IMG/VR virus record: IMGVR_UViG_3300042399_002267
Strand: one strand, 5' to 3'
Source: a virus
Length of the DNA: 64,000 nucleotides
Part shown: positions 33,317 through 54,939 of the stretch, piece by piece
Position numbering within the stretch: the first letter of the stretch is position 1
How the letters are laid out: every line of letters begins with the position of its first letter
Position numbers and translations under genes: made by a program
Notes under the pieces: model-generated
Database searches by the model: none
What the model was told of the DNA's origin: nothing
The model's input: only the letters and a program-made list of their open reading frames with translations

Positions 33317-33344
33317 TGATATTCCTCATAACCAATTGTACAAT
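33316..33344 (+). promoter_or_regulatory. sigma70-type leaderless promoter TTGATA-N17-TACAAT-N6-ATG
   Basis: -35 at 33316-33321, -10 at 33339-33344, ATG at 33351, no SD. Confidence 0.65.
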
Positions 33345-33350
33345 ATATCT

Positions 33351-34328
33351 ATGATTACAAGCAAAACTCCATATAGAATAAGTTTTTTTGGTGGCGGAAG
33401 TGACTTGGAATCTTATTATGAAAAAAATACTGGATATGTAATTTCTACATCAATAGACAAGTATATATATCTTAGTATTAATAAAAAATACGAAAAATCA
33501 ATACGTGTAAATTATTCAAAAACTGAAAATGTTAATAATGTAAGTGAAATTAAACACGATATTGTTAGAGAAGTATTGAAATATTTTGAGTTAACAAGTT
33601 ATTTGGATATTACTTGTGTGGGAGAACTTCCATCCAACGGTACTGGACTTGGTTCGTCAAGTGCATTTACTGTTGGTTTGATCAGTGCATTAAATAAATA
33701 TTTAAGATTGAAACTATCTACTCATGAAATTGCTAATTTAGCATGCCATGTTGAAATAGAAATATTGGGAAAATGCATAGGTAAGCAAGATCAATATGCT
33801 TCAGCATTTGGTGGGTTTAATGAAATAATATTTGAAAAAGATGGAAATGTTCTTGTCAATCCATTGAATGTTTCAAAAGACTTAATTGCCCATTTACAAA
33901 ACAATCTTTTGCTTCTTGACACAAAAAATCCAAGAAATGCAGAAGATATTTTAGTTAAACAATCTGATAACATTAAAAAAAGTTCAAATGTATCTGACAA
34001 TCTTTCGAAAATGATTGATTTAGCAAAAAATTTCAAAGATATGTTGCAGAAAAATGATATAGACAATGTTGGTTATTTATTGCATGAATCATGGATCTTG
34101 AAAAAGAATCTTAGTGATTCTATAAGTAGTAATCATATTGATCAGATGTATGACTTTTGTATGAGCCTTGGAGCAGAAGGTGGAAAATTATTAGGAGCTG
34201 GTGGCGGTGGATTTCTATTAATTTATGCTAAGCCTGATATAAAAAAGAAAATTAAAAATTTCTTTTCAGATTACAATCCATCAGATATCAAAATAAATAC
34301 AAATGGCACTATTGCTAAATATATATAG
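33351..34328 (+). CDS. hddA: GHMP-family sugar kinase (HddA/WcbL-like heptose-7-phosphate kinase)
   Basis: TPYRISFFGGGSD, GTGLGSSSA, GKQDQY, GGKLLGAGGGGF. Confidence 0.85.
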   Translation: MITSKTPYRISFFGGGSDLESYYEKNTGYVISTSIDKYIYLSINKKYEKSIRVNYSKTENVNNVSEIKHDIVREVLKYFELTSYLDITCVGELPSNGTGLGSSSAFTVGLISALNKYLRLKLSTHEIANLACHVEIEILGKCIGKQDQYASAFGGFNEIIFEKDGNVLVNPLNVSKDLIAHLQNNLLLLDTKNPRNAEDILVKQSDNIKKSSNVSDNLSKMIDLAKNFKDMLQKNDIDNVGYLLHESWILKKNLSDSISSNHIDQMYDFCMSLGAEGGKLLGAGGGGFLLIYAKPDIKKKIKNFFSDYNPSDIKINTNGTIAKYI

Positions 34329-34380: not shown

Positions 34381-35235
34381 TTAGCTGACGGTGATTCTGG
34401 AAACTGCGTAATCGTTGATTAATGCAAATCCGAGTTCTTCGTAAACAACCCATCCAAGTCTGAGTCTCTTTGGATCGTCAGCTGGGAGGACAGTGATGTC
34501 TTGGCGAACTGGGAGAGCACCAACGAATTGTGCAGGTGCGAGAACGTATACAGAGTTCTTAGGAACCATTGTGGAAACGTGGATGTCTGCGGAATAAATA
34601 TGTCCGTAGAGACCAGTCATAAGAACGTCTCTTTGAGTTGCCTCATCGAAGAATTCCTTACCCCAGTTTCTGATATCCTTGTATCTTTGTGGGTGAAGAA
34701 CAACCTTAGCACCAATGAGTTCGTGCTCTTCGATGAGAGTCAACGCAAGGTTGATGTTCTCTGGTTGAAGAGTACCGGAAACAGTGATAGCTTGGTCAGT
34801 TGGAACACCAGCATTGACAACCTTGAAGACTTCTGTATCTTCTTGTCTTTGGAGGGAATCCTTTGCGCGAACCTGTGCTCTATCGACAATGTAAAATCTT
34901 CTTTGGCGAATTTCGTTAAGTCTGATTTGTGGATGTGCAGCAAGTTCAATTGTTGGGACAAGGAGCTCTTCAGCTTCAACTTCAGCAGAAGGAACAGCGC
35001 CTCTCTTAGGAATAACATAGGACTTTACAGCTACATCTCTCTCATATCTTGCAAGAGCGCCTTGTGGGAGCTCATCAACCATGAGAAGTTTTCTACCGAT
35101 AGCTTGGTACATAAGGGAAGTCTTGATTGGCTCAACCATAGCTTGAGCTAATGCTGTGCGTCCCTCAGGAGTTTCGAGAGCCATCGCAATGATAGCTTCT
35201 CTCTGCTCGTTTGTATTTCTTTTGATCATTGACAT
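34381..35235 (-). CDS. major capsid protein (HK97 fold, 284 aa)
   Basis: Last gene of the protease-scaffold-decoration block, with strong SD AGGAG and high-expression codon bias. HK97-like E-loop/P-domain pattern (…RAKDSLQRQED…VVLHP…GLYGHIYSADIHVS…EELGFALIN). Confidence 0.85.
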   Translation of the reverse strand: MSMIKRNTNEQREAIIAMALETPEGRTALAQAMVEPIKTSLMYQAIGRKLLMVDELPQGALARYERDVAVKSYVIPKRGAVPSAEVEAEELLVPTIELAAHPQIRLNEIRQRRFYIVDRAQVRAKDSLQRQEDTEVFKVVNAGVPTDQAITVSGTLQPENINLALTLIEEHELIGAKVVLHPQRYKDIRNWGKEFFDEATQRDVLMTGLYGHIYSADIHVSTMVPKNSVYVLAPAQFVGALPVRQDITVLPADDPKRLRLGWVVYEELGFALINDYAVSRITVS

Positions 35236-35972: not shown

Positions 35973-37652
35973 CTAATCCTCGATTTGTGGCATTGACCAA
36001 GTGCCTCTAAGGGCAGATTGGATGTCGAGAGCTGCATTATTGACATTGCTGCCACTAAATGCAGGGGTTGTAGAAATACCAAGTGTAGATGCTGTTCTGG
36101 TATTACTCATTCTCTCAGCAGCTGCAGCAGCAACTCTTTCAGAAGATGCTTGTGCAGATTTGAGTAGAAGTTTGGTTTGTCTGATCATAGCGTCAGCCTT
36201 AAGGTTGTCGTTTAACATTTGATCAGCATATGCATCAACTTCAGATGTTTCAATGATTCCAGCTAATGCTAGTTTACTTGAACATGAATAAGCTGCTTTA
36301 ATTCTGGCTTTTTCAAGATCAGAAGAAGATGTCATCAACTTGACCTGATCACCAGGAGTTTGCTTGACTGTGACAGTTGCAGCATCCTTATCAGAATAGG
36401 TGCCCTTATTCATCATTTCAGAATAGTTGTCTTTTTCCATCTTTGCGCAGTTTGAACATTCAGTTTTTTCATCATGCATTTCAGCATCTGTCATTGATGT
36501 TTCATATCCACATGTTGTACACTTGACTGCATGTCTTTGTGCTTGAGCAACAGTGGTCTTATGTGGCATTGATGGCATTTGAGTAGGAACCTCAAAATAC
36601 TTTGCATCAAGTCCTTCTGATGGATTCTCTAATGAATCCCAATCCACTGTATACTCTAAAGAGCCATCGCCTGAACCTTCGAACTTGCTAGGCTTAGTGA
36701 TATCTGGGAATTGTAAAGAATCAGGGATGTTTGTAGGAACTTTTTGGTCAGCAAATGAAGGGTTCTGTTCCTTGAGAGAATTCCCATCACTTCCTTCTAA
36801 TGTCATAGAAGGATATTCTACTTCACCTGGCATGTTTACCATGTCTTCGTTGTACTTGAATCCTGCTGACGCTGGATATTGCTCTTCCTCTGAAGCAATC
36901 TTCTTAAGAATAGCCTCTCTCTCAGCACGTCTAGCAGCTAATGCTTGTTTAGTCATTTTGTTCACTCCATTACTTGTGTGCATTTTAGGCTCGGAATCTA
37001 ATTCCATTTCATCTTCATCAATGTCCATGTCGTCTTCTGAATCCATATCTGAATCCATATCGTCTGAATCAGTATCCATGTCAGAATCATCTTCCATGTC
37101 CTCATCATCAAGATCAACGTCCATGTCCATATCATCTTCTCCGCCTAGAAGATTGTCGAGCGCTTTCTGCACTGCTTTCTGTGCAACGTCAACCATATCA
37201 GCGGGAACTTCTATTTCAAACGTAGCCATCTCTTCAACATCGTCTACTTCGTCTTCGTCATCATTTAAATCGTCTTCTAAATCATCTTCATCATCTTCGA
37301 TGTCTTCGTCCATGTCTTCCATGTCTTCGTCATCTTCAAATTGATGCATTTCAATTTCTTCATCTTCTGTTTCATCGTTTGCGAAGTCTGCAGTCTCTTC
37401 TGCCCCACCGTCAAGATTGATCATTTTATTGACATGCATTTCGTCCATGCCTGCTTCTCTGGCAACTGACGGTAAATATTTAGCTCTTATTGCATTAGCG
37501 ACAATGGCAGCTTCATCTTTGTTTAAAGATGCAGTTTTTACCATGTCATTGACACATGAGTTAAAATCTTCCTTGTCAGTAACTTGAAGTTCAGCAAGAC
37601 GAAGCGCAGCTAATCTTTGTTGGTGATCGGCATTCGTCATATTTTCTTTCAT
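35973..37652 (-). CDS. capsid scaffolding-like protein with a highly acidic region
   Basis: D/E/M-rich tract, a CxxC…CxxC pair and a helical C-terminus. Located between protease and capsid genes. Confidence 0.6.
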   Translation of the reverse strand: MKENMTNADHQQRLAALRLAELQVTDKEDFNSCVNDMVKTASLNKDEAAIVANAIRAKYLPSVAREAGMDEMHVNKMINLDGGAEETADFANDETEDEEIEMHQFEDDEDMEDMDEDIEDDEDDLEDDLNDDEDEVDDVEEMATFEIEVPADMVDVAQKAVQKALDNLLGGEDDMDMDVDLDDEDMEDDSDMDTDSDDMDSDMDSEDDMDIDEDEMELDSEPKMHTSNGVNKMTKQALAARRAEREAILKKIASEEEQYPASAGFKYNEDMVNMPGEVEYPSMTLEGSDGNSLKEQNPSFADQKVPTNIPDSLQFPDITKPSKFEGSGDGSLEYTVDWDSLENPSEGLDAKYFEVPTQMPSMPHKTTVAQAQRHAVKCTTCGYETSMTDAEMHDEKTECSNCAKMEKDNYSEMMNKGTYSDKDAATVTVKQTPGDQVKLMTSSSDLEKARIKAAYSCSSKLALAGIIETSEVDAYADQMLNDNLKADAMIRQTKLLLKSAQASSERVAAAAAERMSNTRTASTLGISTTPAFSGSNVNNAALDIQSALRGTWSMPQIED

Positions 37653-37781: not shown

Positions 37782-40700
37782 TTAGTCAATCCAAGTGATA
37801 TTTACATCAAGTTTTGATGGATTCTTCTTGTTTTGGCTTACAACTGTTTTTGAGTAGTTTCCACAATCATAACAGAATGTATTATTTTTAACCTTATGTG
37901 CTTCTCTATTTCCACACTTAGGGCAAATCATACCAATTGGTAATCTTTTTTCGGTTGTTTTATCAAAATCTGGCATTGCTGTTCTAAGATAAACATCGGA
38001 ATCAACTGTAGCAGCCAATCTGTACATAGCTTTGTATGATGCCATTGGCGCCATAGCACCAGGAGCTCCCATAGGTGGAGCAGGAGGAACTTCAGTTGGT
38101 GCAGTTGCAGCACCTAATCCCATGTCTTCTCCCATGCCTAAATCAGGTAACTCTTCTGCGCCTTTTCCATTGCTTCCCATTGAGACAAGTTCAATCGATT
38201 GAAGAACCTTGTATGTGGTACCACATGCTTGGCAATCTGCATTTGATTCAGAAATGTTTACATCATCAGAGCCACAAACTGGACAAACTGAACCCCAAGG
38301 CTTGATTGCACCAGGCTCAGAGATTTGATCATTAGGATCAGATGCATTCATCTCATCCCCACCAGTCATAGCACTGATACCTAAATCTCCACCTGGAACA
38401 GCAGATGCATCTGGTGCAGGTTGACCAAGATTAGGATCTACAGGACCTGCAGGAGGAGCTGCCGGTGTCATGCCCGGAACTTGTGCATATTTGAGAAGAA
38501 TTTGATTTCTCTTAGCTTCTCTTGATGCTTTGGCAGATGCTGTCATAACAACAACTGGTTCTTCAGTAATCTCGCCAACTGACTCATGTCCAGCATCATG
38601 TTCGGACATCATGGAATCAGAACCATTTGAAACATCAAATGATTTTGTTGATCTTGTTGAAACAGTAGCAGTTACGTCACCATTAGCAGTGACAATCAAA
38701 TCTGTGAATGAGAAAGTATTTGGATCTACTGTAAAACCATGCTCTTGAAGTACAGATATAGCCTTTTGCTTGAATGTTTCTTCAAATGCATCATCAGAAG
38801 GATTAACGCCCTCTAAATCATCTTTTGTGCATACAAATCTCAAGCATTCAGATTTATCTTGAGTTACTTGAATACCAGCAGTTCTTTCTGAGGATCTTTT
38901 GATTTGAATTGCCTTAGTTAGTAATTTCTCAGCCAAATCATAATCTTCAACAAGTCTCTTAGCAGCTACAACAATTGATTTTGTAGGAATGTCAAAGTTA
39001 GTTGAATAATCAGCGAGCCAACCAATAACATTGTTGTCAATATTGTCAGCAGATGCAGTTCTTACTCCCCAGAAATCTCTTCTTTCTCTGGATCTAAGTC
39101 TAGCATCGGTGGAAGATGCTGTTTTAGCTCTGGTGATAGCAGCAATCATTTGTTTTTCTGGCATTGATTGCATACTGTCGATAACTTCACTAGGTGTAGT
39201 TCCAGTTTCTTCACTTGCCATAGCGCCTGCAGAAATGACAGACTTTATTGCTTCTTTGGATGGTAACTTTTCATCTTTATCAACAGCTGATTGAAGAGCA
39301 GATTTTAATTCTTCTGTTTTAGAAGAAGGAGCTTCAACATCTAAGCCTTCAGAAGGTACGCTAACGTCCATCATTAATGAACCAATAATGTTCATAATGC
39401 CTTCTTTGGTAATTGCGCTATCTTCTGCTACTACTGCGATTGCATCCGCCAAGTCTTTAGCAGTGATAGTTGATGTTACTGCATCACCAAGTTGCTTGAG
39501 AATAGCAGCAACTGAATTATCAGGTTCTACATCTTTGCTGAAGAAGTCAGCATTATCAGCTTCATCTGCTCTCATTTCACTTCCTGCAGCAGAGGTGCCA
39601 ATCATTTCAGGCAACATTGGTTCTTCTGCAAGCATTTGTGCAACTTTGATGATTTTGTCAGGAGTTTCCATTGCAGAAACAACAGATCTACCAAGTGCAT
39701 TAATTGTTGCAGACATAATTTCATGAGCAGATGCAGAACCTTCAGTTCTACTTTCAGAAAGTCTCTTTTCAATTACTTCTGTAGGAACGCCTTTAGCAAC
39801 TTCAGCAACTAATTCTGTAAGAGTTTTCATAACTTCAGAATCTTTTACTCTATGTGCATAAAGTCCAGCTTCACCTAGTAAAATTTCTTTTACATCTTCA
39901 GCGCCTTTACCAGTTTGTTTGGATTCAAGTAATTCTTCTCTTACTTTATTCATAACACCAGTATTTTTGCTTTTGACACCATCTTGAAGATTGTCGTAAG
40001 TTTCACCAGTTCTTACTTCTTCAAGTTGCTCTTGTCTTGATTCAAGTCTTTCTTTGACATCAAGCAATGCAGTTCTTACAAAACCAGAATATTGATTTAA
40101 TAATTCTGCAGCAACTTTAGTACCTTGACCATTCTCCATCATGTTAAGTTGAGATTCAGTCAAAATAGGCTCCCAGCTATTTCTCTTGCCGTTGGTAAAT
40201 CCTGTGATGGAACCATCTGTAGAGAGAACAACTTTATTTCCTGCAGCATCTTCGACTTTAAAATCGATAGTTACAGCAGCAGCAAGCTTTTTTCTTTGTT
40301 CTGATGCGATTTTTGCAAAATGATCCATTTCGTTTCTGCCCTCCGCCCCATTATTTTTTGGCGTGTTATTTTTGATATTTTTGTTTCGTTCATTAGCTAC
40401 TCTAATGACTGATTCAATACTGCTTTGAACATCTCTTGAATATCCAATAGAATTCTTAAGTTCTAAAAGACTTTGTGAAAATGACAAAACTTTATTTGTT
40501 TTCTCAGGTGTTTTATACCCATTACTTGCAAACACTTCTCTAGAACCATCATTTGATGCCCATACAAAATGAAGATCAGATGATGCTAGTGCTACACCGC
40601 CACCTACAGGAGATGTTTCTTGCGGTAAAGATAAATCCATTACTCTTCCAACATTTCCCATTGGAGAATAATTAGCAAGACCTACAGGCGCTGCAGCTTG

Positions 40701-41966
40701 TGGAGCTTGTTGAACTGCTTGTTGAGTTTGACCTTGATTTAATGGTTGTGGTCTTTGACCAGAACCAACATCAACACCATCATCAATCATGTCTTGCATA
40801 GTTGCCTGTAAATCAGACATAGCTTTAGTTACTTTTTGAACATGCGTGAGGTCAATATTGTCTTTTCTTGCAAACATGTTCATCACAGCAACTTCTAAGA
40901 AGTTTAATGCAAGGTTGATCATATCCAAGATGTTTAAACCACTTCTTGGATCAATACCCAAAGCATTCAAAATTGCAGCCACTGTAGAGTTTTGACTTGC
41001 TCCTGGACCTGCTAAAAGTTGACCACCAACCAAGTTGCCTGGCGATTGTGCCAATTTCAATGCAGTGTTTGTCGCAGACATTGCCGATCTTAAGAAATTG
41101 TCGTATTCAGATCTTAATTCTGGATTTACTGGAGCACCTTGATGAGCTAAAACAATACTTGATTTGATTTGTTCAGCTTTCTTTTCAAGATTTTCTGCTT
41201 GATTTAAAACATCATCAACATCATAAATTTCTTGAATTTCACAAGCTTCAAAAGCACCATCGCCTACACAAGAAAGCTCTATAAACTTTAAATTGTAGTT
41301 TTCTTCGTAAACTTTTTTGCCTGTAGTTGGATGGGTTTTACCCTTGTGTTTTTTTAAGCATTCACAATAATCTTTGACATCGTATGCTTTGTTGCCACAT
41401 TTTGAGCATGTTCCGTAATCAACAGAACATCCCATAGACACATCGTGAATGATTCCAGTTCTGATATTTCTAGCAATATCAGGATATGCTTCTTCATCTA
41501 CGAAGAAGGTACAATATACACAATTTTCTTTATCATCCCACTCTGCATAAACTACCATCCCTTTGGCTTGTTCAATGTCATCGTTTTTGTGATTTGTATA
41601 AATTGGAACCCCTTCAAATGTCTTATATGCAGGTAACTTTTTTCCTTGAATATCTCTTTCTTTTAAAAGTTCTTCTTTAGAAAAATAATCTCCATTTGCA
41701 TTGCAAATGTCTGCATCTATAGCTCTAGCTCTGACCCAAAGAAGTTTAGCGCCCTGACGAGCTTTCATTTCTTTGACAATATCAAAGTCTTTATATTTTT
41801 CTAAAACATCTTTGGGATCTGCATATAAAGATTGCAAACCAATTTTTGCAGCCTCTCTCATTTGTGATGAGGCTGTCCTAAGCATATGCTCTCTGGCTAT
41901 ATTTCTATCTTGTTCATTTAAGAAACTATCAATTGTGATAGCTCCGCCTTTTGCAATCCTATACAT
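37782..41966 (-). CDS. prohead maturation protease (HK97/assemblin-like) with a long multi-domain extension (1394 aa)
   Basis: N-terminal NANGDYF…PIYTNH…KGMV…DVSMG…FIELSCV. Lies between portal and scaffold, with Zn ribbons in the protease domain and at the C-terminus. Confidence 0.75.
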   Translation of the reverse strand: MYRIAKGGAITIDSFLNEQDRNIAREHMLRTASSQMREAAKIGLQSLYADPKDVLEKYKDFDIVKEMKARQGAKLLWVRARAIDADICNANGDYFSKEELLKERDIQGKKLPAYKTFEGVPIYTNHKNDDIEQAKGMVVYAEWDDKENCVYCTFFVDEEAYPDIARNIRTGIIHDVSMGCSVDYGTCSKCGNKAYDVKDYCECLKKHKGKTHPTTGKKVYEENYNLKFIELSCVGDGAFEACEIQEIYDVDDVLNQAENLEKKAEQIKSSIVLAHQGAPVNPELRSEYDNFLRSAMSATNTALKLAQSPGNLVGGQLLAGPGASQNSTVAAILNALGIDPRSGLNILDMINLALNFLEVAVMNMFARKDNIDLTHVQKVTKAMSDLQATMQDMIDDGVDVGSGQRPQPLNQGQTQQAVQQAPQAAAPVGLANYSPMGNVGRVMDLSLPQETSPVGGGVALASSDLHFVWASNDGSREVFASNGYKTPEKTNKVLSFSQSLLELKNSIGYSRDVQSSIESVIRVANERNKNIKNNTPKNNGAEGRNEMDHFAKIASEQRKKLAAAVTIDFKVEDAAGNKVVLSTDGSITGFTNGKRNSWEPILTESQLNMMENGQGTKVAAELLNQYSGFVRTALLDVKERLESRQEQLEEVRTGETYDNLQDGVKSKNTGVMNKVREELLESKQTGKGAEDVKEILLGEAGLYAHRVKDSEVMKTLTELVAEVAKGVPTEVIEKRLSESRTEGSASAHEIMSATINALGRSVVSAMETPDKIIKVAQMLAEEPMLPEMIGTSAAGSEMRADEADNADFFSKDVEPDNSVAAILKQLGDAVTSTITAKDLADAIAVVAEDSAITKEGIMNIIGSLMMDVSVPSEGLDVEAPSSKTEELKSALQSAVDKDEKLPSKEAIKSVISAGAMASEETGTTPSEVIDSMQSMPEKQMIAAITRAKTASSTDARLRSRERRDFWGVRTASADNIDNNVIGWLADYSTNFDIPTKSIVVAAKRLVEDYDLAEKLLTKAIQIKRSSERTAGIQVTQDKSECLRFVCTKDDLEGVNPSDDAFEETFKQKAISVLQEHGFTVDPNTFSFTDLIVTANGDVTATVSTRSTKSFDVSNGSDSMMSEHDAGHESVGEITEEPVVVMTASAKASREAKRNQILLKYAQVPGMTPAAPPAGPVDPNLGQPAPDASAVPGGDLGISAMTGGDEMNASDPNDQISEPGAIKPWGSVCPVCGSDDVNISESNADCQACGTTYKVLQSIELVSMGSNGKGAEELPDLGMGEDMGLGAATAPTEVPPAPPMGAPGAMAPMASYKAMYRLAATVDSDVYLRTAMPDFDKTTEKRLPIGMICPKCGNREAHKVKNNTFCYDCGNYSKTVVSQNKKNPSKLDVNITWID

Positions 41967-42028: not shown

Positions 42029-42036
42029 GTAAAAAT

Positions 42037-42062
42037 TAAACCCGTCGAAATCGACGGGTTTA
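42037..42062 (-). terminator. rho-independent terminator after the portal gene
   Basis: TAAACCCGTCGA-aa-TCGACGGGTTTA followed by a T-run on the minus strand. Confidence 0.8.
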
Positions 42063-42090
42063 GGAAAATAACTCCAAACAATAAAATTAT

Positions 42091-44391
42091 TTATAAAACA
42101 ATTTGCCCATTAGGTTGAAAATTTGATCTTTTCTTTATAGCATTTACAATAACATTTATACAATCTTGTGGATGATCATTTAATTCTTTATCTGTAAATC
42201 TGACAATAATCCAACCATGAGATGCCAAGTCGGTGTCTCTTCTTTTATCTCTTGCTATTTTTTCTGGGTTATTGTGCCAAATTTCACCATCTGCTTCAAC
42301 ACCTATTCTCAAAGCTGGGATTGCAGCATCAAGTTGAAAATCTTGTGTGTTTCCAGCTGAATATTGTGCATACAATGGATATGGCATATTGATTGACATC
42401 AACATTCCATAAAGTTTTTTCTCTAATGATGTAAACAACTGTGGATTGTTTGTCTGCATTTTCTTTTTAGCAGCAGTTCTAATGTTTTCATCTTCATCAA
42501 CAGAAAATCTATTAAGTTCAATTTTAGCTTCATGATTTAACGGGCTAGAAGTGTCTCCGCCAAAGAAAGGCGTATACATATTTCCATACAACCCATCATA
42601 TTCATCAGGTAGTCTTCCCAAGTAGCCTCTGCCATTTACAGGAACTAAAGACTTGATAAACCCTTCATGCGCAGCAGATTTATATCTTTTGCTAGCTAAA
42701 CGTTTAGTTGTTCCATCAAAATGAATTTGCATTTTTTCATCAACAATTTCATTAATCATCGAAGATGCTAATCTATAGTTTTCATCTCTTGAATTAGCAA
42801 GTGGTGGCGCTAATCCTGGTGCGCCCATTCCTGACATATCAGGAGCTTGCTGTGCTCCAAAACCTTGACCTGAAACTGGACCTGATTGAATGTTCATGCT
42901 GAATTCAGGAACACCATAATTTGGATCCTTCATGAATGTTGCACCTTGTTCAAATCTCAATCTTTCAATTTCTTGATCGACATCTAAACCGAATGCTTCA
43001 ATTAATGAAACATTTGAAACTACTCCATTTTGGTTGGCTGTTACAAGTGTTTGAAGTTTATTAGTTTCATCTCTTAATTCCAAAGAATTGAATTTGATTT
43101 TAGGATAAATGATTTCGTCTTGTCCTCTTTCGCCTTCAACTACAAATCCATTCCACTGAGAAACTGGCTTAAATATTTTTTGTTCTATCCAGTTAGCAAC
43201 TTCATGTCTCCAAGTTTCAATTCTTTGCTCCATTGCAAGAAGACCAACTTGACCAGCTGAGTATGCAGGACCTTCTCCAGTTAATAACACTTTACTAAGC
43301 ATCATTCCATCTAGAAGTTCATTTTCGATTAATTCAAATTGATTGGAGATATCATAAATTTTTCCACTAGCTCCATACCATTCTAAATCAAAGTTATGGT
43401 GAGTAACAAGTGTAAGGTTAGGGTCATTTGCCAAAGATGACAATTCATCTTGAACGCTATCAATATCTTCTTGAGATGCAGGACGAGTATCAGAGCCTAT
43501 TTTGACAACCTTAACAGGAATGATTAATCTTTCAGCAATTATATATTGAGCCTGTCTAAGTTTATCTTTGTAAGTTAATGTTTGAAACAATGGTCTTACA
43601 ATAGATGTGCCATAATCTTCCCAAGGATTAGAGCCATATTTAAAATGATGAATTGATATTGGGTTTAATTTGATTGGTTCACCCTTTTGTATCAATCTCT
43701 TTACACCATCAGGGATATTTTCATATACTTCTTTTGGGCTACGTTCTGTGACAATTCTTACTTCTTCTGCAGATGGTCTGTAAGAATATGATCCATGTTG
43801 ATCAATCATCCCTGGAGATTTTAAAACACTGTCAGGATTTAGGATAGAACATGATTTCCAAGTGGCTCCGTCATGTTGACATTCTTCGCCTTTTTCATTG
43901 TCCCAGTTTGATCCAAAACAATGAGGGCAATCAATTGACATTAATACGAATGCATCACCCAATAAATAATAGACTTTGGAAATCTCCGGGAGCCATTTTT
44001 GGAAATTTAAAACTTCAATTAATTTTTCAAAATAGTCTTTTACATAAGTGGAAGAACACTCAAGTTTCCATCCTGAAAATGGATAAGTAGCATAAAAATT
44101 TATTCCAGCAGCAACTTTAGGTTCATTATTTTTCCACCAGTTTGCCCAAAGATATACTTCACGTCGAGCATTTGGAATCTGAAAAGATGAAGGAGTTAAG
44201 AACGGTGAATAAAAGTTAGGAGAAGTGGTTACTGAATTTACAGATGCTTGCCTTACATTAGGACCTGGACCTTGAGAAACTCTGCTAGTGGCATGATTTC
44301 TTTTTTCAGTAACATCACTTATTGTTGTTTCACCAATTACTGATTTTGCTGATGATTTGATAGCAGCTGCCAATGAAAGTCTATTTGCCAT
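42091..44391 (-). CDS. portal protein with C-terminal DUF559 (Vsr-like PD-(D/E)XK) nuclease domain
   Basis: Portal core (…YYLLGDAF…IHHFK…YGTSIV…). C-terminal LEKKLY…QY…FQLDAAIPALRIGVEADGEIWH…RDKRRD…GWIIVRF is DUF559-like. Confidence 0.8.
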   Translation of the reverse strand: MANRLSLAAAIKSSAKSVIGETTISDVTEKRNHATSRVSQGPGPNVRQASVNSVTTSPNFYSPFLTPSSFQIPNARREVYLWANWWKNNEPKVAAGINFYATYPFSGWKLECSSTYVKDYFEKLIEVLNFQKWLPEISKVYYLLGDAFVLMSIDCPHCFGSNWDNEKGEECQHDGATWKSCSILNPDSVLKSPGMIDQHGSYSYRPSAEEVRIVTERSPKEVYENIPDGVKRLIQKGEPIKLNPISIHHFKYGSNPWEDYGTSIVRPLFQTLTYKDKLRQAQYIIAERLIIPVKVVKIGSDTRPASQEDIDSVQDELSSLANDPNLTLVTHHNFDLEWYGASGKIYDISNQFELIENELLDGMMLSKVLLTGEGPAYSAGQVGLLAMEQRIETWRHEVANWIEQKIFKPVSQWNGFVVEGERGQDEIIYPKIKFNSLELRDETNKLQTLVTANQNGVVSNVSLIEAFGLDVDQEIERLRFEQGATFMKDPNYGVPEFSMNIQSGPVSGQGFGAQQAPDMSGMGAPGLAPPLANSRDENYRLASSMINEIVDEKMQIHFDGTTKRLASKRYKSAAHEGFIKSLVPVNGRGYLGRLPDEYDGLYGNMYTPFFGGDTSSPLNHEAKIELNRFSVDEDENIRTAAKKKMQTNNPQLFTSLEKKLYGMLMSINMPYPLYAQYSAGNTQDFQLDAAIPALRIGVEADGEIWHNNPEKIARDKRRDTDLASHGWIIVRFTDKELNDHPQDCINVIVNAIKKRSNFQPNGQIVL

Positions 44392-50615: not shown

Positions 50616-51737
50616 TCACAAATTTCCTGCAAATTCTTTTTTTACAACTTGTAATGCATTTTCAATAGTAGTGTCCATATCAAAATATTTATAATTGCCT
50701 AATCTTCCACCAATTAATAAATTTGGACAATTGACAGATGCAAAATTTCTATACTTTTCGTATTTTTCATTATTGATTTCATCATTTATTGGATAGTATG
50801 GATCTTCATTAGGAATGTTTTTATCAAATGTTTTTGAATACTCATAAGTAATTACTTTTTCATCTGATTTACTATTGTAAAAATAATTATGTTGAATGAT
50901 TCTCGTAAAATGAAAATCCTCAGATGGATATGTCATCAATGCCGTGCCTTGAATGTCAATCTTTGTATTGTAACTACTATGTTTGAGTGTTCGGTATTCT
51001 AAATCTCCAAACATGTAATTAAAATATTGATCAATAGGTCCTGTGTAAATTACTTTTTCAGCCAAAGAGTTTAAAAAATCTCTATTTACAATGTAATCAC
51101 ATTCTAACCAAACAACAATGCCTGATAATAGTTTTTCAAAAATTGAAGTGTAACCATGAATCGGAATACCTTCGTAAACATGATCATCAGAATAATATCG
51201 ATCATTTAAAGAAAATCTTAATGGTATTCGTTTAGCAATTGATGCTGGTAATAATTTTGGCTCTCTGCCCCATTGTTTTTTGGTGTATCCGTAGAAAAAC
51301 ATTTCGTACAAAGTTCTACCCATGGTGCTAAGACAATATTCTTCGAAATTTTGTGGATTTTCAAATAAAATTTTATCTGAATTAATTCTTTCTTTTGCTT
51401 GAAGTGGAGTGACAACATCATTCCAAACATGATGAATAGTAGATAAATTTATTGGCAAAGAATAGATTTTATTATTTACAAAAGCTTTATTTCTTAGAGT
51501 GAAATTATTAAATTCTGCAAATTTATTTATATAATCCCAAACATATTTTTTTGAAGTATGAAAAATATGTGGACCATATTTGTGTATATGATAATCTTCA
51601 AATGGTTCAGAATAACAATTTCCACCAATATGATTTCTTTTATCAACTACTAATACTTTTTTACCTAATTTATTAGCTTCATAAGCAAAAATGGAGCCGA
51701 ATAATCCGGCTCCAACAATAAGATAATCATATTTCAT
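50616..51737 (-). CDS. glf: UDP-galactopyranose mutase
   Basis: YDYLIVGAGLFG, HIGGNCY, HKYGPHIFHT, PYYP, GRLGNYKYFDMD. Confidence 0.93.
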   Translation of the reverse strand: MKYDYLIVGAGLFGSIFAYEANKLGKKVLVVDKRNHIGGNCYSEPFEDYHIHKYGPHIFHTSKKYVWDYINKFAEFNNFTLRNKAFVNNKIYSLPINLSTIHHVWNDVVTPLQAKERINSDKILFENPQNFEEYCLSTMGRTLYEMFFYGYTKKQWGREPKLLPASIAKRIPLRFSLNDRYYSDDHVYEGIPIHGYTSIFEKLLSGIVVWLECDYIVNRDFLNSLAEKVIYTGPIDQYFNYMFGDLEYRTLKHSSYNTKIDIQGTALMTYPSEDFHFTRIIQHNYFYNSKSDEKVITYEYSKTFDKNIPNEDPYYPINDEINNEKYEKYRNFASVNCPNLLIGGRLGNYKYFDMDTTIENALQVVKKEFAGNL

Positions 51738-52815: not shown

Positions 52816-54939
52816 TTATCTAAACCTTCCACCTAAATTCATCAATCTTGCATTAGGAAGTCTTATAATTATTTTTGATGTTAAACATTCATAAGATACA
52901 GCAGCTACAGCATCGCAAATGTCATCTTTGTATCCTGACAAAGACTCGATGTAATATCTTTTGCCTTTCCATTTCTTTTGTAAAAATTGAAATTGGATTT
53001 TAGCTTCTTGCACTTCATTAAGTGGTTGTCTTTCACCACGCATATCAAGATAACTACCACCTGAAATATCATACATGTCAATTCTTTCTTCTCTAATTAA
53101 TTGACTTAATTCAGTGTAAATATCTTCTTTGTATTGTTTATTAAAATGTTTTTCAACAATATTTATTCCAGCAGTTTTCAATCTTATAATTGAAGATTGT
53201 GAATTCCATTGATCAACACTAACTTGTTTAAATCTAAATCTTTTATGAAGATCAATGACATAATCTTCAACTTCTCTAGTGTCAATTGGTTGATTTTTGG
53301 ACATTGGATTCCAAAAGTGAATGTGATCAATAACTACTCGCTTAAGTGGTCTATTATCAGGACCTACAGTTCCATACATAGGCTCTGTATGAGCAACACA
53401 CAATGCATAATAATCTGATGTTCTAGCAGGATCTAAATGACAATAATATTCAAACATATTGTCAGCATATTCTTTTCTTTTGACCATACTCATGCTACTG
53501 AACATAGAATTAATCAAATCAGCCATAAACATAGGATCTTGAGAAGATGCACCAAATTCAGCCCCATATTGCATTTGAAATTCTGATGGATTTTTCTTTT
53601 TTTCGTTATCTAAAAATTCTTTCCCAATATTCGGATTTGCTAACCATGTTGGCAATCTCATTATCAAAGTCGTAGGATCTTCAACTCTGTTTTCATGCAA
53701 GTCGTGCAATAACCCAATAGGTCCTTTGGGGTTTGAAAGCATCATCATCTTTCCGTCTTTTCCAAAGGTTGCAAGAGATGGCTTCAAATCATCATATAAT
53801 GCGTAATCTAATCCTGAATCGGGATTATCACCTGCCATAGCAGCAATTTCGTCCATGATTATGCACCAGCAAGTTAGACCAACAAGACCTGATGCACTTG
53901 AAGAACCACATTTTAAAGTTAAAGAACCAGAAAATGGATTTAACCCTTGAGCAGTACGGCGTTCATTTTCCTTAATATCATGGTCTGTAAGGAATCTCAT
54001 TTCAAGTTCAGTGTCTTTGCCAATAAATGGATTGAAATATGGCGAGGCTAGTACTGTTTGTTTGATTTTTGAGAAGATAGCATTCTTTGCTTGTTCTTCA
54101 TTTTTAGCAACATTCAATAAAACAATTTGATCAAATTCCATTAAACCATATCTGGCTTGTGGATGACCCATAGAAATCAATCTGTACAGTTCATAAAGTG
54201 CAATAGCTGAGACTAAGAATGATTTTCCACTACGTCTTCCAAGTACCAGTACAAGTTCTTGAAATTTGTATCTATTTGTACATTTCTCGTATATTTGATG
54301 TCTTAGTTTGGAATCTATTTCATCAGAAAACAAAAGATCTTTTTCTGATTGAAAACCATCAATAACAGGTCTATCTGATAATTTATCTACAAGTCTGATT
54401 GCATCAAAGTTTGTAGCTTCTTCTTTTGCATCTTCATATCTTTTTATTCTGACATCATCATCTAAATTAACGCATTCAAGACATGGAGAGTTATCAACTG
54501 TAAAAAGTGGTTTTACTATTTTACCAAGTTTCTTTTTTCTTAAAGTATCTTCCTCATTGTCCTTGATATGTTTCCAAACGCACCCTTCGCATCCATTTCT
54601 TTCTTCTAAAGGAACATCTTGAATTTCTAAATTTTCATTTCCTTCTTGCCCCATATAAAAACACTTGAGAATCAATCTTTGCCAAGGATGTGGCTTCAGA
54701 TTACAAAAATAAGGGTGTTCTATAAATGTTATGATGTCTACGATTTGATCAGGGTTAAATCTTGTCTTCTCTGGTTTTTTTGGAGGGGATATATCAGTTC
54801 TGGCACTTGGCAAAATGATATCGTCAAACTCAGATGCATAGCCAGTGTCTTTGAAGAATTGAGAAACTTCATTAGCTTGCTGCATAAGTTGACTTTTGAG
54901 GTCATGTTGCGCTAATTTCTGCGGATTTGGTTTTCTCAT
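52816..54939 (-). CDS. terL: terminase large subunit
   Basis: Walker A VLGRRSGKS, Walker B IIMDEIA, coupling motif LSNP, nuclease HLDPA…SVDQW…DDICD. Confidence 0.92.
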   Translation of the reverse strand: MRKPNPQKLAQHDLKSQLMQQANEVSQFFKDTGYASEFDDIILPSARTDISPPKKPEKTRFNPDQIVDIITFIEHPYFCNLKPHPWQRLILKCFYMGQEGNENLEIQDVPLEERNGCEGCVWKHIKDNEEDTLRKKKLGKIVKPLFTVDNSPCLECVNLDDDVRIKRYEDAKEEATNFDAIRLVDKLSDRPVIDGFQSEKDLLFSDEIDSKLRHQIYEKCTNRYKFQELVLVLGRRSGKSFLVSAIALYELYRLISMGHPQARYGLMEFDQIVLLNVAKNEEQAKNAIFSKIKQTVLASPYFNPFIGKDTELEMRFLTDHDIKENERRTAQGLNPFSGSLTLKCGSSSASGLVGLTCWCIIMDEIAAMAGDNPDSGLDYALYDDLKPSLATFGKDGKMMMLSNPKGPIGLLHDLHENRVEDPTTLIMRLPTWLANPNIGKEFLDNEKKKNPSEFQMQYGAEFGASSQDPMFMADLINSMFSSMSMVKRKEYADNMFEYYCHLDPARTSDYYALCVAHTEPMYGTVGPDNRPLKRVVIDHIHFWNPMSKNQPIDTREVEDYVIDLHKRFRFKQVSVDQWNSQSSIIRLKTAGINIVEKHFNKQYKEDIYTELSQLIREERIDMYDISGGSYLDMRGERQPLNEVQEAKIQFQFLQKKWKGKRYYIESLSGYKDDICDAVAAVSYECLTSKIIIRLPNARLMNLGGRFR

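Follow-up and report, generated by a model that had tools for sequence, protein, structure and literature searches.

Why should a phage hang an endonuclease on the ring through which its own genome passes? The question is raised by a gene in the window analysed here, a stretch of 64,000 nucleotides from the IMG/VR virus record IMGVR_UViG_3300042399_002267. In a single uninterrupted open reading frame (ORF) on the minus strand, this gene encodes a portal protein of 766 amino acids (aa) with a DUF559/Vsr-type nuclease domain at its C-terminus (Table 1). In the prevailing view, portals are passive or sensing rings, and the terminase is the sole nuclease of the packaging machine. The gene studied here belongs to a deep clade of uncultured jumbo phages that would build an apparently active endonuclease into the portal itself, presumably on the DNA side of the capsid. 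Among the explanations weighed below we favour, at a probability of roughly 45%, an enzyme that stays tethered to the portal and works, at the inner end of the channel, on the DNA of the phage itself.

Architecture and active site of the portal-nuclease

Both parts of the protein score above the gathering cut-offs of their Pfam families. Portal_Mu (PF06074) matches residues 226-465 with 35.8 bits (cut-off 23.9), MTES_1575 (PF18741) matches residues 682-752 with 39.6 bits (cut-off 38.2), and DUF559 (PF04480) matches residues 687-752 with 25.8 bits (cut-off 20.6). With both domains in one ORF, the portal-DUF559 fusion claimed in an earlier, sequence-only reading of this locus (hereafter the original prediction) is genuine. 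The interval 42091-42900 named there holds the linker and the C-terminal module, but the gene extends to 44391. All strings quoted in that prediction are present in the translation: a G/P-rich linker (residues 489-534), YRLAS (539-543), KRLAS (563-567), NIRTAAKK (636-643), D688, and the motif from E699 to H706.

In the full-length AlphaFold2 (AF2) model, a confident core (residues 70-488) and a folded C-terminal module (533-758) are separated by a disordered stretch (487-532). The core was matched by Foldseek to the solved portals of P7-1 (Pakpunavirus), lambda, G20c, HFTV1 and T4 with a probability of 1.0 and E-values down to 6e-10, and the protein matches the PHROG portal family phrog_16240 (E 4e-30). 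Its nearest cultured relative is the 648-aa portal of Bacillus phage G, with 28% identity.

Between the crown helix and the adaptor, all 27 non-redundant relatives have a tether of 46-89 aa (median 67), in which G, P, A and M predominate. Variation is greatest in the adaptor, which spans 31-153 aa; averaged over sequence pairs, identity is 47.8% in the core, 42.5% in the nuclease, 37% in the linker and 21% in the adaptor. Since the adaptor varies in length and the tether is always long, the design reduces to three constant elements: core, long flexible tether and nuclease.

Modelled alone, the C-terminal module folds into helices followed by an alpha/beta domain (predicted local distance difference test score, pLDDT, 86; predicted template modelling score, pTM, 0.84). 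Structural alignment of this model by VIA-align gave Z 10.1 to NGO0050 of Neisseria gonorrhoeae (PDB 3hrl), with a root-mean-square deviation of 1.9 A over 93 of 94 residues, followed by I-Bth0305I (PDB 3r3p, Z 9.8) and Vsr (PDB 1cw0, Z 8.4). RAP domains, found in FASTKD4 and mitoribosomal proteins, are fold matches at Z 5-7, and the ESM Atlas returned only small viral DUF559 clusters with low scores (0.83). When the family profile was compared with the PDB, 3hrl was matched over the whole domain (E 4.6e-12), with E-x-D-G-x-x-H aligned to the E-A-D-G-G-Q-H of that protein. The catalytic domain of I-Bth0305I is the sole PDB match in a single-sequence search (E 0.006) and is also matched by profile (E 1.7e-7); in addition, the PADLOC model 'HEase' was matched with E 8.5e-6. 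As judged from the predicted model, the C-terminal domain is a complete Vsr/DUF559-type nuclease fold. An orthologue of Vsr proper (TIGR00632) was considered and rejected at 19.7 bits against a cut-off of 97.85.

Conservation was assessed in two alignments, one of 35 sequences and one of 27 members non-redundant at 85% identity, which reach down to about 22% nuclease identity. Residues E657, Q676, D688, P692, E699, H706, D715, G726, W727 and F732 are invariant in either alignment, as is A690 in the smaller one, and D701 (96%), R718, D719 and R731 are at least 90% conserved. Together they constitute the full DUF559 signature, E...Q...D...E-x-D-G-x-x-H...D-x-x-R-D...G-W...R-F. From its position in the fold we take D688 to be the counterpart of Asp51 of Vsr. 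The intact-looking domain of the original prediction is borne out in its catalytic residues as well as in its fold, and the sequences point to an apparently competent endonuclease. From them we infer its catalytic activity, its substrate and the cleavage events discussed below.

The motif carries a further, independent mark. Many relatives (P0122-P0247) are 1100-3003 aa long, their portal genes holding up to about five inteins (Intein_splicing plus LAGLIDADG_3) at five recurrent query positions, approximately 69-107, 155-164, 329-348, 366-384 and 699; Pfam detects no Hint/intein domain in the window's own portal. Eight representatives have a canonical intein, 158-389 aa long, precisely between E699 and residue 700. 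These inteins start with Cys1 (C-L-H-P-[DE]-T), end in [ST]-H-N (F-N in one) and are followed by Cys+1, and their splicing would restore V-E-C-D-G-x-x-W-H. Inteins typically reside in the most conserved motifs of important genes, and an insertion within the catalytic motif thus marks it as conserved and important.

Distribution and inheritance of the fusion

Twenty contigs from different samples, the longest of 182 kb, encode exactly this 766-aa protein. A word-indexed search listed 120 clusters, nearly all of 760-817 aa, 48-97% identical and with the same Pfam domains; at least 115 clusters in this range of identity share the architecture. An exhaustive HMMER search of 1.84 billion representatives at 50% identity (E <= 1e-30) yielded 324 matches. 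Among the best 150 of these, 121 carry the nuclease domain at or near the C-terminus, so that the survey of such fusions suggested by the original prediction finds them in abundance. Where it is missing, the representative is either a fragment or one of the most divergent portals, which measure 500-726 aa, have at most 34% identity and are similar to the 648-aa portal of phage G. Short proteins composed of the C-terminal module alone start at contig edges. A search of genome contigs for related loci with the single portal protein as query found no relative.

Core and nuclease diverge together. Their pairwise identities are correlated with a Mantel r of 0.87, a value reached by none of 999 permutations. 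Given this co-divergence and the nearly equal identities of the two parts, the nuclease is inherited with the portal and constrained almost as strongly. The fusion is real and old, and a large uncultured clade of jumbo phages has retained it.

The automatic JGI names of many full-length portals (P0004, P0027, P0034 and others) read 'very-short-patch-repair endonuclease', a label taken from the C-terminal domain. This name is over-specific and hides the portal. The fusion and the intein sites, by comparison, are convenient markers of the clade.

Where the nuclease may act

Portals are dodecamers, and all solved portal structures have the C-terminal crown turned towards the capsid lumen. By homology, twelve modules are therefore expected inside the head, and it is from these structures that we infer both location and copy number. 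Each portal subunit would carry a tether leaving the crown helix, then the helical adaptor, then the DUF559/Vsr-type endonuclease, and every head would thus be built with twelve nuclease domains where the DNA channel opens inwards. There they would act where phage DNA emerges from the channel or re-enters it. What they do can only be guessed at: nicking, trimming and holding of the first-packaged end, or relief of torsion. In the subclade of this phage, the prohead protease may in addition clip the nuclease free at [KR]-phi-A/[SA] sites in the adaptor (the slash denotes the cleaved bond), and the clipped domain would be an internal head protein able to leave with the DNA. We favour the tethered enzyme because the tether and the covalent link are universal in the clade and the cleavage motif is not. 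In T4, one end of the genome appears to be held at the top of the portal, and C-terminal fusions to the portal are tolerated (PMC10893049).

Several points weigh against this explanation. A nuclease lying beside a densely packed genome would need some specificity or restraint, and its interior location is argued from homology to solved portals. Among cultured phages, no portal-DUF559 fusion was found in a collection of 50,697 phage records. Three motif sites lie between tether and nuclease in the protein studied here, and at least one is present in each of 15 closer relatives, which would fit release equally well. Finally, a selfish endonuclease still engaged in homing would conserve its active site as well.

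A narrower role appears unlikely to us, namely that the domain serves packaging and ejection as a second nuclease inside the head, a nickase or end-processing enzyme that deals with the leading end or the torsional stress of a genome of about 360 kb as the DNA leaves the channel; model phages offer no equivalent of such a step. Clearing of branched DNA ahead of the motor, as by T4 endonuclease VII, was rejected for a module on the lumen side of the crown. Replacement of terminase cutting was rejected on the same lumenal position, and the large terminase TerL matches the large-terminase profile across residues 215-679; termination of packaging, one of the functions offered in the original prediction, would be topologically awkward from the capsid interior. 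A module threaded through the channel to the outside was dismissed by reasoning only: the tether would be long enough, but twelve chains and a 25-kDa fold would block the path of the DNA.

The nuclease might instead be cargo. Under this alternative, which we hold less likely but take seriously as a rival in the subclade of this phage, the prohead protease would cut RLA/S and RTA/A and free twelve nucleases of 14-26 kDa. Ejected with the DNA, they would enter the next host cell and might nick or degrade its DNA or that of competitors, comparable to T4 internal proteins, Alt or MuF-nuclease toxins. The evidence comes from the motif [KR]-[TLIVFY]-A-[SQAG], whose occurrences were compared with 500 per-protein shuffles. 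The head module of this record (35973-56572, minus strand) holds 33 sites against 4.5 expected (z 14, shuffle maximum 12), an approximately 7-fold enrichment, compared with 23 against 14 (z 2.5) in the rest of the record; 11 of the sites are found in the 1394-aa protease fusion and five in a 559-aa protein at 35973-37652.

It counts against the cargo explanation that the motif was defined on this very genome, and the loci of relatives provide a fairer test. Four of five such loci are enriched: L005, whose portal is about 50% identical (19 sites against 4.5 expected, shuffle maximum 11), L006 at about 38% (10 against 2.5, maximum 8), L014 at about 38% (24 against 5.4, reached by 0 of 500 shuffles) and L015 (14 against 5.0, likewise 0 of 500). 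The fifth, L016, is weak (6 against 1.7, reached by 3 of 500 shuffles). We regard the motif as a candidate prohead-protease code, and the 1394-aa prohead protease is the presumed enzyme for the portal sites, the link between motif and protease being likewise presumptive. Its consensus A/S resembles the sites of herpesvirus assemblin.

Within 27 portals, the density of motif sites is highest in the disordered N-terminus, with 6.6 per 1000 aa, and in linker plus adaptor, with 6.3; core and nuclease have 1.6 each. Site 1 of Table 1 is the best conserved and persists as N-Y-[RK]-phi-A-[SA] down to about 48% identity, beyond which N-Y-[KR] alone is left. Site 2 is kept as [RK]-phi-A-[SG] in closer relatives, and site 3 occurs in some relatives only (P0082, P0106, P0119). 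The sites fall in helices predicted by AF2, which speaks against their being cut. At the other end of the protein, a [KR]-[TLFY]-A-[SQA] site is found within residues 1-69 in 12 of 27 relatives, mostly at about residues 46-57, a pattern that hints at trimming of the portal N-terminus.

The spread of these sites through the clade bears on the choice between cargo and tether. Down to a portal identity of about 41%, every relative (15 of 15) has a site before the nuclease, whereas 10 of the 11 more distant fused portals have none, the exception being a single KIAG in P0133. Of four distant loci tested, three nevertheless show enrichment of the motif, and next to the site-free portals P0132 (L006), P0135 (L014) and P0153 (L015) the scaffold and protease proteins are still rich in it. 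Distant fused portals thus lack sites amid motif-bearing neighbours, which leaves the tethered nuclease as the conserved design. Candidate cleavage sites of the kind named in the original prediction are thus present in the closer relatives and absent from nearly all of the distant ones, and clipping is plausible, at best, as a trait of the subclade. A tether never shorter than 46 aa also argues against free cargo, which needs none. Moreover, the C-terminal domain is constant among relatives and not polymorphic, and no immunity-like gene is evident 3' of the portal, where the next gene downstream is the 1394-aa protease.

That the domain is a selfish or domesticated homing endonuclease of the Vsr/I-Bth0305I type, which became joined in frame to the portal gene at its 3' end, we consider improbable. 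It would cut rival portal alleles or genomes in the cytoplasm during co-infection, the tether serving only to insulate the portal. This idea draws on the matches to I-Bth0305I by sequence, profile and structure, on the PADLOC match, and on the portal genes of the clade being hot spots of mobile elements with inteins at five sites. However, the module is fixed rather than sporadic, as its presence in 121 of the best 150 representatives indicates, and it co-diverges with the core. It also occurs in a single copy: the 119.8-kb record contains one DUF559/MTES_1575 domain (43.9 bits to PF18741, 29.9 bits to PF04480). Its motif is the E-x-D-G-x-x-H of DUF559, not the E-x-N-G of I-Bth0305I, and the module is itself invaded by inteins, as is typical of conserved host genes. 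Portals, furthermore, are late, low-copy proteins. A homing endonuclease as the origin of the domain, which the original prediction had raised, is possible; the present distribution is unlike that of a mobile element.

We give equally little credence to a non-catalytic role, in which the nuclease fold would only bind DNA or serve structure at the crown, for instance by anchoring a genome end, sensing the headful or forming a plug. Portal crowns do contact packaged DNA, one T4 genome end appears to be held at the portal (PMC10893049), and the related RAP folds act as binding modules. Against this stands a DUF559 catalytic set that is invariant or nearly so at 42% mean identity. Binding-only derivatives usually lose their catalytic residues.

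An artefact of assembly, frameshift or gene calling that joined a portal to a separate endonuclease gene is excluded by the 20 contigs with the identical protein and the at least 115 clusters with the same length and domains, even though L012 shows two separate ORFs. In this sole case, on a metagenome-assembled contig (NCBI GCA_040384225.1), a 522-aa portal ORF is followed by a 260-aa DUF559 ORF, and the linker continues across the split (L012:5400-5760) in another reading frame. A shift of frame inside the G-rich linker thus accounts for the break, whether it arose in assembly or by genuine mutation of this low-complexity sequence; the L012 nuclease motif reads E-A-D-S-T-T-F-H. With a nuclease fold in the domain and the fusion in its relatives, the grounds on which the original prediction might have fallen are absent.

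Related systems and the surrounding head module

Of the known proteins, NGO0050, a DUF559/MTES_1575 member, has the same fold and the same set of conserved residues. Proteins of this family are small and stand alone or are fused to helicases or restriction-type modules; here the partner is a portal. We know of no DUF559 member with a known substrate, and of no DUF559/MTES_1575 protein described on a virion portal. E. coli Vsr (1cw0/1vsr) shares the catalytic fold, with the first Asp and the motif His at equivalent positions, and has H-G-C-F-W-H where the portal domain has E-x-D-G-x-x-H. Vsr works in mismatch repair with Dcm, and the portal domain is not its orthologue. I-Bth0305I of Bacillus phage 0305phi8-36 is a phage-encoded Vsr-fold protein of 266 aa, close in size to adaptor plus nuclease. 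It is, however, a mobile enzyme encoded in an intron and has E-x-N-G without the His, whereas the portal nuclease has a fixed place, is passed on vertically and forms part of a structural protein.

Among head-associated systems, MuF (SPP1 gp7-like) polymorphic toxins are similar in that a portal-associated head protein carries a C-terminal nuclease into the capsid, and MuF-nuclease toxins bind portals (Jamet et al. 2017, PMC5576092). They differ in that the carrier here is the portal itself, which is not ejected, and in that its C-terminal domain is constant. No MuF domain (PF04233/PF06152-like) was found in the portal protein among Pfam matches with E up to 0.1. T4 endonuclease VII (gp49) was found bound to the portal gp20 (Golz & Kemper 1999, as cited in PMC10893049) and is likewise a DNA endonuclease physically associated with the portal and the packaging machine. 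However, it is attached non-covalently, has another fold and cuts branched DNA before it enters the head, whereas the present domain would hang from the crown on the interior side of the capsid, by homology. The P22 barrel and the T4 gp20 fusions to green fluorescent protein (GFP), which assemble into heads (PMC10893049), place a C-terminal appendage in the lumen as proposed here, but these appendages are structural or artificial and none is an enzyme.

No published account of a portal-DUF559/Vsr fusion was found in the literature searched, including papers on Jug-phages and jumbo phages. The fusion extends two known classes, enzymes carried in virions and portals bearing an appendage in the lumen. 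A nuclease that stays tethered would imply a so far unrecognised step of DNA processing inside the head; with clipping, the portal would become a new delivery vehicle for an injected effector.

Table 1. Features of the portal-nuclease gene and of neighbouring head genes in the window
Feature	Position	Strand	Basis or remark
Portal-nuclease gene, 766 aa + stop	42091-44391	minus	ORF list, Pfam
N-terminal region, residues 1-69, mostly disordered	44185-44391	minus	AF2 pLDDT <50 for residues 20-69
Portal core, residues 70-488, ending in crown helix 471-488	42928-44184	minus	confident AF2 model, Foldseek, PHROG
Disordered G/P/A/M-rich tether, residues 489-534 (46 aa)	42790-42927	minus	AF2 pLDDT <50 over residues 487-532
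Helical adaptor ('mid-domain'), residues 535-651	42439-42789	minus	AF2 helices 533-565, 573-581, 620-630, 635-646
DUF559/Vsr-fold PD-(D/E)xK nuclease domain, residues 652-757	42121-42438	minus	Pfam, structure alignment, profile vs PDB
Candidate site 1, R-L-A-S, residues 540-543, in N-Y-R-L-A-S	42763-42774	minus	string located in translation
Candidate site 2, R-L-A-S, residues 564-567, in KRLAS 563-567	42691-42702	minus	string located
Candidate site 3, R-T-A-A, residues 638-641, 11 residues before nuclease domain	42469-42480	minus	string located
D688, predicted first catalytic Asp, 'D' of PD motif	42328-42330	minus	invariant in 35- and 27-sequence alignments
Predicted catalytic motif E699-A-D701-G-E-I-W-H706	42274-42297	minus	E699, H706 invariant; D701 96%
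Large terminase TerL	52816-54939	minus	PHROG large-terminase profile, residues 215-679
1394-aa prohead protease + long scaffold-like region	37782-41966	minus	phrog_18299 head maturation protease, residues 82-241, E 9e-20
Major capsid protein	34381-35235	minus	phrog_2522, E 1e-68

The IMG/VR record comprises 119.8 kb with a GC content of about 30%, and CheckV estimates its completeness at 33%, which suggests a genome of roughly 360 kb. The portal gene lies in a head module together with the terminase, the protease and the major capsid protein, all on the same strand. The 1394-aa protein has a protease-like N-terminus (approximately residues 50-245) followed by a very long low-complexity or helical region. 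In the relatives examined, its equivalents are 1375-1598 aa long and follow the portal directly or within two genes. For the protease domain, no sequence relative was detected in the PDB and no match in NCBIfam. At the C-terminus of this protein we noted two CxxC...CxxC units resembling zinc ribbons, for which the Pfam hints are weak.

The portal stop codon is followed by a gap of 124 nt. It contains a GC-rich hairpin, AAACCCGTCGA-TTT-CGACGGGTTT, and then a T-run (approximately 42030-42065, minus strand), which together look like an intrinsic terminator in sequence. An AGG...TAGAA element lies just 5' of the protease gene. A UDP-galactopyranose mutase (PF03275, E 7e-59) is encoded within the head module at 50616-51737 on the minus strand, and a GHMP-family kinase at 33336-34328 on the plus strand adjoins the capsid gene.

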